The notes: a model not told the origin generated them from the letters alone. A DNA stretch of 34,742 bases from Reclinomonas americana ATCC 50394 (GCA_048213135.1 PS015490.1:24622-59363), one strand, 5' to 3'; shown: positions 258 through 34,252, counted from the first letter of the stretch. Translations and numbers: made by a program.

Positions 258-287
258 GACACAGCAATCTCAAGGAGGCCACGCAAC

Positions 288-2263
288 TCTTTAGTGTTTC
301 CACCAGCATCTTGCCGCACACCTCGTCCATCGGGTTGAGTGAAATGTCGAGTTCCCTCAGGCTGCTGTTGGCCGCCAGAGCATCGTTCAGTGCGGCCACG
401 GCATCAGCGTCGTGGCCGAACGAGTTGCCGCGCAGATTCAGGTGCACCAGCGAGGTGGACTCGCGCAGTCCAGTGCACAGGTTGACAACGCCTTCGCCGC
501 CGAGCATGTTGCCCTGCAAATTCAGTCGCTCCACGCGGTTGCTGAGCAGCAGGTGCTCGGAGATGTGGAAACCGCTCTCGGGACCCAGGCCGCAGTAGGC
601 CAGCGACAGCGACGGAGCACGTCCGCCCGCGCCAATCGCCATGGCCAGAATGCGCAGACCCTCGTCGCCCAGCGGGTTGTAGTCCAGCGTCAACGACTGC
701 AACACGAGGCCGCCCTCAAACTCGCGCGCCAGCGACATGCACGCCAGCGACGATAATCGGCAGTCCATGAGCTCCACTTTCTCGAGCTCCGTCAGGTGAC
801 GCAGAATGCGTACCACGTCCTGCGTGATGAGAAAGAAGGAGAAGGAGTGAGGTGGAGGGAGAAGAGCAGAACGAAAGATGGAGATGAACAAGCAAAGTGG
901 TCACTCTGTTATGCGTGAAGCAAACTATCAAGGAGAAGACAGATCAAACAACGTCGTTCCGTGGTGCAGCGCAGCAATGAAGGAGACGAATCAATTGAGC
1001 GCATACTGTCGGAGAGAAGACAGATCAAACGAGGTCGCCAGTTGGTGCAAAGTGAGAAGGAATGAATAAAGGTGTCGACTGAGTGTACACTGCCGAGAAG
1101 AAGATGGATCAAACGTGGCCGTCAAGTAGTGCAGTGTGAAGCTACAAAGAAGACAAAGTAGGTCGCTGTTGAAGGCGTGCTGTCGGAGAGGAGACAGATC
1201 AAACGTGGTCCTTTACAGTGAAGAAACAAAAAGATAAACAAGCGCTGACTCTTTGAGTGCTACCGGAGAAAACGAGGTCTGTGGTGCAGCGTACAAGAAC
1301 GATGCAACCAGCAGAGAAGATGGATCAATCGAGGAGCGAAGGAGATGAAAGACTATCTTCTCCGTATCAAAGTAGAGCTGTCTGAGCAGAGATAGAGCAA
1401 ACGAGGTCGTTGTGTTGCACACAGTGAAGGACCAAAGAGATGAACAGGATTGCCATTGAAGGCGTGCTGTCGGAGAGGAGTCAGGTCAACGCGGTCGTTC
1501 TGCGGTGCACAGTGGAGAAATGACTATCGGAGAAAAACGAGGCCACTCTGCTGCACAGTGCGAAACAACGATGAATGCCAAGAGAAGATGGTCAAATGAG
1601 GCCTGTCTATGGCACACAAGTAGCCAAGGCGATGAACAAGGTCGCTCTGTTGAAGAATGCGGCGGTGAAGCAACGAAGACGACTCTCTCCCCATCCCTCC
1701 CCTCCCTCTGCCCCGCGCACTCAACATTAATCCCATCATCCCGCACATCGGCCTTCCACAGATACAACGCCTTGGTGCTTCTCATACGCGACGCAGTAAT
1801 CCCATCCGCCAGTGCCTTGAAGCCGGCCGGACCCAGCGCATCCCCAATGAGCAATTTGCTCGGCACCGCCGGTCCCTCCTCGTCATTCATCGCGTCCTTG
1901 AATTTTTGCACAAATGCGTCGTACGGAACCACTCCGTTGGCCTCGCACGCCGCATTGTACTGCGTAATCACCTCCTTCATCACCACCTCAGGAGCTGCGT
2001 CATGTCACAGCGTGTAAGTTCGGAAACTACTGTCTTTTTCTCTTGTCTCACTCTCTTGTTCTCTTCTCTCACTCGTGTGTGTGTGTACAGACAGCACACT
2101 CAACGATCAGATTGCACCTGCACACGAGGCACGCGCACAGAGTGAGTCACTTTCCTCTCAATTTTCCACTCATTGCACACACACGCACCTCCTCCTTTCC
2201 CTTGCCGCCCTTTCCCTTCTTGCCCTTCTTGCCCTTTCCGCCCTTCTTTCCCTTCTTCGGCAT
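288..2263 (-). CDS. RNI-like leucine-rich repeat protein with Lys/Gly-rich N-terminus; 3' end runs off the contig
   Basis: Exons 2263-2189 (MPKKGKKGGKGKKGKKGKGGKGKEE), 2117-2105, 1994-1726 and 819-288 join in frame. Repeats LQSLTLDYNPLGDEG, VERLNLQGNMLGGEG, LVHLNLRGNSFG and LRELDISLNPMD fit the RNI-type LRR consensus. Confidence 0.88.
925..1680. repeat. Degenerate ~80-95 bp tandem repeat inside a 906-nt intron (820-1725)
   Basis: Core resembling tgtcggagagaagacagatcaaacgaggtcg recurs near 932, 1007, 1091, 1181, 1315, 1380, 1468 and 1583. ttgaaggcgtgctgtcggagaggag occurs at about 1169 and 1456. Confidence 0.75.
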
Positions 2264-2408
2264 TGCTCTCGCTCTCTCTCACGTGCACGCACAGACAAAA
2301 CGCACGAGACAATTCAAATGCTGACGTCATCATTGCTCTCACGCGGAAAAAGCCTCACTTGCGCCTTGCTGAGCAGAGACAACACACACGCGCACGCTGT
2401 TTACATAG

Positions 2409-31854: not shown

Positions 31855-32529
31855 ATGAGTGTGGCGATGTGGCAGGGCCTGTGCGAGTGCTTCAGTGACA
31901 GGGGATCGTGAGTGTATGATTTTCCGCATCGCATCATCGCATTATCATCGTCATTGTTGTGTTTTGTTGTCGTGCACAGCTGCTGCTTTGGCGTTGCGTT
32001 TTCTTATGTAAACTGCGATGTAGAGAGAATGCTCATGTGAGTTCTCGCAGTGCTTCTGCTTTTGCCTGAGCATTGGCGACTCGGCAGGTGCGATTGATGG
32101 AAGCCCGGGCATGGACTGGCTGGTTTGTGACGTACACACTATGTGGGAAGCTGTGAGAGGGACTCACACTGTTTGTGTATAGTGGTGCTGCGTTGGGTGC
32201 TTCTGCCCGCCGATTGGCGACTGCCACAACCGCCGTGAGCTGCGTCAGCGCATGAAGTACGATATGGTTGGTCGTTTCCTTCCTTCCTCTCCTTCCCCTC
32301 TCCTGTGCTCCGTTGCTGAGCGTCTGCTGGTGTAGGACAACTGCATGGACTGCCTCAAGTCGTTCTTCTGCACATGCTGCTCGATTACGCAGGTATGTTA
32401 TCTCTGCTCGTCATCGCACGCGCATATCAGAACACCCATCGCTTGTGGGCTTTGCAGGTGGCACGCGAGGTCAAGCAGAAGGACATTCGCACGGTGGTCG
32501 GCGAGCGCGCGTACGGCGGTAACAAGTGA
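31855..32529 (+). CDS. PLAC8/cornifelin-family cysteine-rich protein
   Basis: Six exons give MSVAMWQGLCECFSDRGSCCFGCFCFC ... NRRELRQR ... DCLKSFFCTCCSITQVAREVK. The stop at 32529 overlaps a possible donor, so the 3' end is slightly uncertain. Confidence 0.88.
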
Positions 32530-32661
32530 GCGGTGTCTCACTTGTCCTCTGCATTGCCGAGCCAACTGGGTGCGAGTACGATTTAACATATGAACGTGGT
32601 GGCAAGCAGAGCGAATGTGTGGGCTACTGTGTGTTTTCATTCACGCACAACGCACTCTCCC

Positions 32662-34252
32662 TCATTTGTCGGTCTGCACGTTGTTGTCCAGCTGGCGGAA
32701 ATGCGAGAAGAACGCGATCATGAAATCGCGATAGTACTTCACATCTTCCACGCCGCACATTTCGCGAATGCTGCAGGATTGCGCGCAGTGAGAGAGCCAA
32801 CCCAGCTTTTCTTTCTCTGCACGCTTTCTCACCTGTGCATCGACAGCTGCGGCACGCCAATGTCCACCGTGCGCACGCTCGTGTTGGTCGACAGAATGGG
32901 ACCAATGGTCGAACCGCACGCCATGTCGTTGCGGACGACGAACTCTTGGCACGGAATGTTGACACGGCGGCAAATCTCGTGCACCACGAACGCCGTCAGT
33001 GCATTGGTCGCGTACCGCTGGTTGGCGTTGGTCTTGACGACCACACCCGAGTGGATGTTGGGTCGGTGCTGCGCCTGGTGCTTCTCCCTGTTCGAAAGTG
33101 GGGAGAGGATGAGTGGTATGAAGAAAATTGCTGCTGTTGCTTCCGCAGTGAGCGCAACTGGTAGTTCGGGTGCACACCGTGTGCCATGTCGGCACTGACG
33201 ACAAAGCTGCGTGCGAGACTCGACTCCACAAAGTCCTGCACCGACAAGTCAGCACGAGAACGTAACACAGACGATGGTAAGAAGCGCACCGCCGGCACAT
33301 TCTTGACATTCTCGCGCACGACCTCGTTGAAGCGATTGAAAAAGTCCTGCGCATGCACGACAAGGGTGAGTGCATTGTTGAGAGCACCTGGTTTCCTCCC
33401 ACCAACATCGCCTCACCTTCAACAACGACGACGCGGCGCCTGCAGCACTTGAACTGCCGACCTCCTCATTGTCGAACAGCGCCACCACGTGCACATCGGT
33501 CGACGAGGCCAGCGACTTGGCCACCTCGTCCGACGCCAGAGCCTGCGAGCAAGCAGCACAGTGAACGAATGTACGGTGAGTCGCGCACGCTCCGTCTGCA
33601 ACAACGCACCTCAATGGCACAGAAAGACGACAGGAGATTGTCGAGACGGGGCGAAAAGATCCATTCCTCCAGCGCACCGCCAATCACGGCGGGCTGGGTA
33701 TCGCACACGTCCAACTCAAAGTCACGAATGTTCTTGGCTGATGGGTGCCCCACGTCAGCAGTCACACGAGAACAGTTCATGGGTTCACATCACTCTCACC
33801 GTCAACGTTCAACTCGCGCGCCAGCAACTCCAACAGCAGTCCGTGATGCGCCGCAGTGCCCGAATCCGCCGGCTTGCCAGCCAGTCGACTGTCGCACGAA
33901 CAAACAAGAGGGGAAGTGACACATGAGTGAAACCATGAAGATCAGACACAGCCTCTATCAACTGTACGCAACGCCTGCATCTCCGACGCCAGCACCGGGA
34001 TGAGGTTGCCCTCCTTGTTGTACTTGAAGTTCTCCGTGGCCTCACGATCCAGATGGATAGCAAGGCTCGGGATTCGCATAATCGGCCGCTTGATGTGCAC
34101 CAGACGCGACTCAAACTTGCCCTCGGTCTCCACCAACACGCGACCGCCCAGCGTCAGATCGCTACACACGCGCACACGATTGAAAATGGATGAGGAAGAA
34201 GAGGCGTAGAAGCCACGCTGAGCCGTGAACTCACCGATCGAACCACGTGTGC
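32662..34252 (-). CDS. DNPEP: Aspartyl aminopeptidase, peptidase family M18; 5' part missing beyond the contig end
   Basis: [71 protein letters not shown] and QLSMHSIREMCG. Confidence 0.95.

Follow-up and report, generated by a model that had tools for sequence, protein, structure and literature searches.

GTT donors with a signal displaced by one base are frequent among the introns of a gene-dense nuclear DNA window from Reclinomonas americana

The stretch of DNA analysed here (the window) comprises all 34,742 nucleotides (nt) of PS015490.1:24622-59363 from Reclinomonas americana ATCC 50394 (GCA_048213135.1), and positions are counted from its first letter. It is eukaryotic nuclear DNA of 54–61% G+C, gene-dense and very rich in short introns, and it is the 5′ splice sites (donors) of these introns that concern us: beside ordinary donors of the type GTG(A/C)GT, many introns begin with GTT and carry the remainder of the donor signal one base further from the cleavage site. 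Genes were identified by Pfam searches of the open frames and by homologue searches. On the minus strand (−) these gave a leucine-rich-repeat gene, a 3-hydroxyacyl-CoA dehydrogenase, the complex I 24 kDa subunit, a PH-domain gene, a TMEM260-like gene and an M18 aspartyl aminopeptidase; on the plus strand (+) a second leucine-rich-repeat gene, a DnaJ gene, a giant cadherin-repeat gene and a small Cys-rich gene. The introns are ∼ 70 nt long, and one 357-codon gene holds seven of them.

Homologue searches with dehydrogenase, M18 and cadherin exons returned no near-identical proteins, which would agree with little or no annotation of this genome in the searched protein collection. Relatives of the M18 exon come from plants, algae and unnamed sequences (58–73% identity; best metagenome match 68%), and those of the cadherin exon are bacterial-type cadherin-domain proteins (24–37% identity). 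The dehydrogenase gene (9103-10656, −) has bacterial-type 3-hydroxybutyryl-CoA dehydrogenases as its best relatives (38–53% identity), yet it carries seven spliceosomal introns; this could reflect an ancient transfer, or merely the composition of the database. Pfam returned no family for the Cys-rich gene or for the exons flanking position 18961, so that the family label of the former and the domain labels around the latter are presumptions of ours. Rfam and transfer RNA (tRNA) scans of the window gave no match to a small nuclear RNA (snRNA) gene or to a tRNA gene.

Introns were located by several means. In the blind junction scan every donor/acceptor pair was tried, the dinucleotides were ignored and the spliced peptide was scored against homologues. 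Introns of the cadherin-repeat gene were treated by a leave-one-out scan, in which each repeat boundary was compared with the other repeat boundaries. A donor-blind gene finder, run in strand-restricted passes, scored codons, acceptors and length, but not donors. The resulting catalogue holds 113 introns: 42 are verified (by scans or Pfam coordinates), 20 are supported (by reading-frame logic) and 51 are model-only. In all 42 verified introns a GT–AG pair is the best canonical solution or is fixed by Pfam coordinates, as befits introns of the major (U2) type.

Donors with T at intron position +3 (+3T donors) are the best GT–AG solution in four genes, at five of seven introns in the dehydrogenase, three of five in the 24 kDa gene, one of the five M18 introns that were verified and nine of 21 in the cadherin-repeat gene. 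All seven dehydrogenase junctions have a GT–AG pair as their best canonical solution. In the 24 kDa gene the top-scoring pair, ties included, is GT–AG at each of the five junctions, and the donors read GTGTGT, GTTTGT, GTGCGT, GTTGCGT and GTTGCGT. The blind scan resolved five M18 junctions to GT–AG, and homology was indecisive for the donor at 33972 and for the acceptor of the intron at 33416. Four junctions of the DnaJ gene are fixed to within a residue by Pfam profile coordinates. The individual sites are collected in Table 1.

Between 19562 and 25825 (+) the cadherin-repeat gene has an intron at the same phase-1 position in 18 successive repeat boundaries, where ordinary and +3T donors alternate. 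The curated pair ranked first among the canonical pairs in 18 of 18 leave-one-out scans, and seven of these 18 donors are +3T. Three more introns, which lie inside repeats, were verified against nine uninterrupted repeats. The introns 22383-22454 and 23092-23157 (+) are divisible by three in length and free of stop codons; the gene finder left them unspliced, and they were revealed by the repeat consensus only.

The original prediction had listed 21 copies of GTTG(A/C)G(T/C) and three of GTTACGC as donors. All 24 motifs are present on the strand given, and the reported exon bases at position −1 of the 21 sites (A 11, G 2, T 4, C 4) are correct. The five junctions that it described as forced by conserved protein motifs (GAGQ↓MG, KYRP↓HP, MVSE↓GVA, YY↓EDLT and HPNY↓QEKH; ↓ marks the junction) are each the best GT–AG pair in the blind scans, and its statement that such donors occur across most genes agrees with our finding of shifted donors in 11 of the 12 modelled intron-bearing genes. 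That every listed site is a donor held in part: 12 were verified by dinucleotide-blind scans, six are supported by reading-frame or stop-codon logic, five come from gene models and one, at 287, has no acceptor within the window. Its figure of roughly a fifth of introns was right in that the motif is frequent and, if anything, low, since GTTG(A/C)G(T/C) is found at 11 of 42 verified, 17 of 62 verified or supported and 27 of 113 modelled introns.

Table 1. Donor sites and motif copies with T at +3. Numbers in the last column are scan scores unless they are positions; L, site listed in the original prediction.
Coordinates	Strand	Motif	Gene or region	Status	Basis
10457..10463	−	GTTGAGT	Dehydrogenase (GAGQ↓MG)	Shifted; verified, L	Best GT–AG pair, 375 versus 305 for the next
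10343..10349	−	GTTTCGT	Dehydrogenase	Shifted; verified	Best of two GT–AG pairs listed; 230 versus 308 for a non-canonical alternative; weakest verified site
9923..9929	−	GTTGCGT	Dehydrogenase	Shifted; verified, L	Tied top among all scanned pairs (576)
9598..9604	−	GTTGCGT	Dehydrogenase (MVSE↓GVA)	Shifted; verified, L	Best GT–AG 565; overall top 570; next canonical 513
9305..9311	−	GTTGCGT	Dehydrogenase (KYRP↓HP)	Shifted; verified, L	Fixed-frame scan: best of three G[TC]–AG among 733 pairs, 473 versus 402
11295..11301	−	GTTGCGT	Complex I 24 kDa subunit (YY↓EDLT)	Shifted; verified, L	Tied top of all pairs (373)
11079..11085	−	GTTGCGT	Complex I 24 kDa subunit	Shifted; verified, L	Tied top of all pairs (264)
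33152..33158	−	GTTGCGC	M18 aspartyl aminopeptidase (HPNY↓QEKH)	Shifted; verified, L	Tied top of 1574 pairs (1008); next canonical 937
20268..20274	+	GTTACGC	Cadherin-repeat boundary	Shifted; verified, L	Rank 1, 1377 versus 1128 for the next canonical
21338..21344	+	GTTGCGT	Cadherin-repeat boundary	Shifted; verified, L	Best canonical, 1169 versus 1040; also chosen by donor-blind gene finder
22737..22743	+	GTTGCGC	Cadherin-repeat boundary	Shifted; verified, L	Rank 1, 1161 versus 1008; also chosen by donor-blind gene finder
23092..23098	+	GTTTCGT	Cadherin-repeat boundary	Shifted; verified; absent from the original list	Rank 1, 1013 versus 855
24380..24386	+	GTTGCGT	Within a cadherin repeat	Shifted; verified, L	Rank 1 against nine uninterrupted repeats, 557 versus 468
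25001..25007	+	GTTCCGA	Cadherin-repeat boundary	Shifted; verified; absent from the original list	Best canonical, 1148 versus 996
25357..25363	+	GTTGAGT	Cadherin-repeat boundary	Shifted; verified, L	Best canonical, 967 versus 753
1719..1725	−	GTTGAGT	Leucine-rich-repeat gene, 906-nt intron	Likely shifted; supported, L	CAG acceptor at 820 keeps frame and repeat periodicity; frame open past the site, donor not forced
2472..2478	+	GTTGAGT	Second leucine-rich-repeat gene, after first coding exon	Likely shifted; supported, L	In-frame TAA two codons on; CAG acceptor at 2948 restores frame
15472..15478	−	GTTGCGT	PH-domain gene	Likely shifted; supported, L	Sole in-phase GT between exon start and stop, given the CAG acceptor at 15417
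18961..18967	+	GTTGCGC	N-terminal part of cadherin-repeat gene	Likely shifted; supported, L	Chosen by donor-blind gene finder
31993..31999	+	GTTGCGT	Cys-rich small protein, after 13-nt micro-exon	Likely shifted; supported, L	Direct exon join out of frame; micro-exon restores frame
33966..33972	−	GTTGCGT	M18 gene, variable loop	Likely shifted; supported, L	Chosen by donor-blind gene finder; homology indecisive
281..287	−			Claimed as donor; L	Only microsatellite up to the window edge, no acceptor
2098..2104	−			Donor status model-only; L	Needs a 13-nt micro-exon; rival model without it also in frame
4225..4231	+			Donor status model-only; L	Frame open for ∼ 65 codons with other in-phase GTs; matching acceptor AAG
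12363..12369	−	GTTACGC	24 kDa subunit, presequence	Candidate donor, model-only; L	Plausible presequence, not forced; shift-aware model prefers 12409
16798..16804	+	GTTACGC		Candidate donor, model-only; L	Predicted by the shift-aware pass alone
16961..16967	+	GTTGCGT		Candidate donor, model-only; L	Predicted by the shift-aware pass alone
11655..11661	−	GTTTGTT	24 kDa gene	+3T keeping +5 G	Tied top of all pairs (653)
13623..13629	+	GTTCGTG	DnaJ zinc-finger region	+3T keeping +5 G	Pfam restart at 13687 fixes the acceptor; then only in-phase GT before the stop
3070-3076	+			+3T keeping +5 G
32123-32129	+			+3T keeping +5 G
32267-32273	+			+3T keeping +5 G
25561-25567	+			+3T keeping +5 G
13116..13122	+	GTTTCTT	DnaJ gene	+3T, G at neither +5 nor +6	Pfam match to DnaJ stops at 13118; J domain goes on in the next exon

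Some features beside the tabulated sites deserve mention in their own right. Microsatellites occupy both window ends, with (TACG)n and (AC)n on the left (1-263) and (GA)n on the right (34487-34660). Two introns, 820-1725 (−, 906 nt) and 4630-5215 (+, 586 nt), are unusually long against the median of ∼ 70 nt; by eye they contain purine-rich, loosely repeated units, and Tandem Repeats Finder reported one short array only (4635-4692). Candidate 13-nt micro-exons lie at 31980-31992 (+), where the frame of the Cys-rich gene needs one, and at 2105-2117 (−), where it is optional. If 4225 is a donor, its acceptor (4433-4439, +) is AAG, versus CAG at nearly all other introns.

By raw count GTTG(A/C)G(T/C) is weakly above chance, with 50 copies against 38.0 ± 5.3 in shuffled sequence (two of 100 shuffles reach 50). 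Its orientation is far from random: 42 of the 50 copies are sense to the local gene (binomial p = 1.2e-6), and four related control 7-mers show no sense-strand excess. Of these sense copies 27 lie at modelled donors, five are internal to introns and ten fall in exons or unmodelled sequence. The donor-blind gene finder chose the motif at 17 of its 90 introns, one of the 17 wrongly. The motif by itself is thus insufficient for donor use, as the copy GTTGCGT at 12958..12964 (+) demonstrates; we rejected it as a donor because the match to the Pfam DnaJ profile stops at base 12948 and the junction requires GTGCGT at 12949 as its donor, which leaves the copy within the intron.

The verified introns fall into distinct donor classes. 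Twenty-two are ordinary (+3 not T, GTG(A/C)GT-like), 15 are what we call shifted (+3T, with G at +6 and not at +5), three are +3T with G at +5, two are +3T with G at neither position, and none has a GC donor. The corresponding numbers are 33, 21, 6, 2 and 0 among the 62 verified or supported introns, and 65, 35, 7, 2 and 4 among all 113 modelled ones. The conserved G is found at +5 in 21 of 22 ordinary donors (31 of 33 with the supported sites included). Among the 20 verified +3T donors it is at +6 and not +5 in 15, at +5 in three and at neither in two, and with the supported sites included 21 of 29 +3T donors have it at +6. The other positions follow it: 17 of the 21 verified or supported shifted donors have G at +4, all have either C (17) or A (four) at +5, and 16 have T at +7, which is the ordinary signal one base later. 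Thus the usual donor of the window is (A)G↓GTG(C/A)GT, and the data support well a shifted form, N↓GT-T-G(C/A)GT, for roughly one in three of the introns examined.

The +3T donors that keep G at +5 (GTTTGT, GTTCGT, GTTGGT and GTTTGC) form a second class that the original prediction had overlooked, and all six verified or supported members have G at −1. This is where the shifted donors differ. At verified junctions −1 is G in 16 of 22 ordinary but only two of 15 shifted donors (p = 6e-4), and inclusion of the supported sites gives 25 of 33 versus three of 21 (p = 1.5e-5). Outside the cadherin-repeat gene the counts are 19 of 20 versus two of 13 (p = 4e-6). Since all eight of the remaining +3T donors have G at −1, the loss is specific to the shifted class. 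In place of G, shifted donors have A at −1 in ten of 15 cases, versus three of 22 ordinary donors, and in this they resemble position −2 of the ordinary class (A in 13 of 22). When their exon flanks are aligned to the ordinary profile, the shifted alignment beats the unshifted one by 15 to 31 bits.

In other respects the two classes of intron are alike. Median length is 71 nt for shifted and 70 nt for ordinary introns, and G+C is the same; 20 of 21 shifted and 31 of 33 ordinary introns end in a CAG acceptor; and 19 of 21 and 29 of 33, respectively, have a branch-like motif (CTGAC-like, 6 to 45 nt upstream of the acceptor, by a definition derived from 16 verified introns). Shifted and ordinary donors intermix within genes and at paralogous intron positions, which suggests that conversion between them is easy, by gain or loss of one intronic T. 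The GTT donors are therefore real, their signal is displaced by one base, the preference for G at −1 is lost and the other intron features are the same.

We infer from these data which RNA pairs where. Our preferred reading, which we hold with little more than even confidence, is that these are GT–AG introns of the major spliceosome whose donor block, including the near-invariant G, is read one base further from the cleavage site by U1 in a shifted register, so that the last base of the exon is freed from having to be G. The 5′ end of U1 would pair one position out of register, the first G of the intron replacing the last G of the exon, with the second U mismatched. U6 would later accommodate one extra nucleotide, and cleavage would remain at the G of GU if, as we suppose, G+1 and U+2 are set by the catalytic core whatever the register of U1. 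A bolder version is that two 5′ splice-site registers operate side by side in this genome as a routine matter in expressing its genes, with roughly one in three introns shifted, by way of either a co-evolved second U1/U6 variant or a dual-register U1, and that the choice of cleavage site would then be wholly uncoupled from the register of U1; this we put forward tentatively, as possible but clearly less probable.

Several observations weigh against U1 reading the shifted donors in a shifted register. At the position preceding the conserved G, where a standard U1 would pair with A, 13 of 15 shifted versus nine of 22 ordinary donors have C (p = 0.007), a preference that standard U1 would not favour. 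Mean predicted pairing to standard U1 is −6.7 kcal/mol for ordinary donors in the canonical register; for shifted donors it is weak in every register (−0.5 canonical, −1.3 shifted and −1.3 bulged), many individual energies are zero, and thermodynamics does not single out the shift over the bulge. These energies were computed with the U1 5′ end as printed in PMC4856993, from which the host's own U1 may differ. On the exon side, the loss of −1 G is not significant within the cadherin-repeat gene alone (six of 13 ordinary versus one of eight shifted, p = 0.17), and cadherin repeats are paralogues, so their donors are non-independent. The shifted profile describes the flanks of shifted donors no better than background (−131.6 versus −119.4 bits; −79.3 versus −78.9 outside the repeat gene), and their −2 position (G 9, A 6, C 4, T 2; n = 21) does not mirror the −3 of ordinary donors (A in 18 of 33). 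Since the flanks fit background equally well, the firm result on the exon side is the loss of G at −1 and not the gain of A. The original prediction that the whole consensus has slid by one base thus stands for the downstream signal, which is displaced by exactly one base, and for the loss of −1 G, whereas the A at −1 that it stressed is a modest signal. Finally, all statements on splicing rest on protein-level and reading-frame evidence, and the shift was already permitted by the donor score of the pass that yielded the 51 model-only introns, for which reason our conclusions lean on the verified and supported introns.

One alternative is a bulge: U1 would sit in its normal register on the exon end and GU, one U at +2/+3 would bulge out and pairing would resume at +4. 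Its downstream pairs are identical to those of the shift, its mean predicted energy with standard U1 is the same, a +2/+3 bulge is among the registers validated in human cells (PMC4856993), and it is the more stable arrangement for the few shifted donors that do have G at −1 (2472, 11085 and 20268). A bulge keeps the exon in register, however, and G at −1 should then be at least as frequent as in ordinary donors; instead only two of 15 shifted donors have it, compared with 16 of 22 ordinary ones and all eight weak canonical +3T donors, and the unshifted exon alignment is the worse one by the margin given above. Loss of −1 G is expected if the whole register shifts and not from a simple bulge, which favours the former, and we judge a bulge rather unlikely. 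Poor pairing of shifted donors to standard U1 in any register would be explained if a dedicated or altered snRNA, either a second U1 (changed, for instance, where it faces +1/+2 or where it faces the C) or an altered U6, read the shifted class as its own consensus. The C before the conserved G hints at such a U1, and co-evolved U1 5′ ends are reported for Entamoeba, with a candidate in Mastigamoeba balamuthi (bioRxiv 10.1101/2022.06.08.495308). The features that both intron classes share, and their alternation at paralogous positions, are nevertheless easier to reconcile with a single tolerant machinery, and this explanation seems unlikely to us.

Two simpler accounts do without a new register. 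Position +3 might be degenerate in this lineage and T merely tolerated there, as the class that keeps G at +5 (GTTTGT, GTTCGT, GTTGGT; six of the 29 verified or supported +3T donors) would suggest. Tolerance at one position does not account for the 21 of 29 that have G at +6 instead of +5, where 31 of 33 ordinary donors keep it, nor for a class in which the series G, C/A, G, T recurs displaced by one base and −1 G is lost, and we consider degeneracy very unlikely. Most improbable of all is an artefact, either a surplus T from homopolymer overcalling in the assembly or a wrong modelling of the introns. Being intronic, the additional T would escape notice in the reading frame, and the gene finder did wrongly call the copy at 12958. 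Miscalled ordinary donors, however, would inherit the ordinary −1 base and the ordinary choice between C and A; both differ (p = 6e-4 and p = 0.007, respectively), and 12 of the originally listed sites are the best GT–AG solution in scans that ignore the dinucleotides.

Taken together, the observation behind the original prediction is confirmed, with a share of introns larger than first estimated; the displacement is well supported, and the evidence from −1 G favours a shifted over a bulged register. That shifted donors pair with an ordinary U1 is what we infer. Shifted or bulged U1 pairing has been known only as a rare mammalian exception, and here it would concern about a third of the introns checked. 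If this is true genome-wide, the host offers a natural system in which to ask how the cleavage site is set when U1, and later U6, lie one base out of register, and whether snRNAs co-evolve with the shifted donor class. Donor models built on a single weight matrix would overlook a sizeable fraction of the introns in this genome or put them in the wrong place.

U12-type introns are a known second class that, like the shifted introns, is mixed with the major class within genes, and they have long, highly conserved donor and branch motifs distinct from those of the major class. We rejected a U12-type identity: the donors are GTTG(C/A)GT-like, and branch motif, acceptor and length equal those of the ordinary introns of the window. 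Literature searches on shifted and bulged registers, atypical protist donors and the motif strings themselves turned up no genome described as having frequent GTT-shifted donors, although supplementary intron tables could hold one. Among protists, Entamoeba has GUUUGU donors with a co-evolved U1, and M. balamuthi GUGCGC donors with a candidate U1 reading ACGUAC (bioRxiv 10.1101/2022.06.08.495308). The window resembles them in a departure from GUAAGU that is lineage-wide there, with U at +3 or C at +4, since it has GTTTGT donors and a GTGCG-type majority. Theirs are single consensus sequences in ordinary register, whereas genes of the window mix two registers; and M. balamuthi, reported to have 3.4 introns per gene, introns of 137 nt and 60.7% G+C (PMC8136499), is a poor match to the window.

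The nearest parallels are human. Both shifted and +2/+3-bulged registers have been validated in human cells, and all validated non-canonical registers together account for 1.5% of donors there (PMC4856993). Bulge +2/+3 sites (Roca et al. 2012; Tan et al. 2016, PMC4856993) share with the shifted donors a GU, an extra U and then the consensus; 68 were predicted and 54 curated among 201,541 human donors (Tan et al. 2016), so that the arrangement is far commoner in the window, where in addition the preference for −1 G that a bulge would preserve is gone and the −1 data oppose an unshifted exon register. Shifted-register 5′ splice sites are a handful of atypical human cases proven by suppressor U1s (Roca and Krainer 2009, as cited in PMC4856993). 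Like the shifted donors of the window, they have, by that account, GU at the cleavage site and poor complementarity in the canonical register (found here with standard U1). Their consensus is restored one position on, with the first G of the intron replacing the last of the exon; in the window such a restoration is clear on the intron side and the loss of −1 G agrees with it, but the exon flanks match background as well as they match the shifted profile. Unlike them, the class described here makes up 15 of 42 verified introns, and its downstream block is G(C/A)GT, not AAGT.

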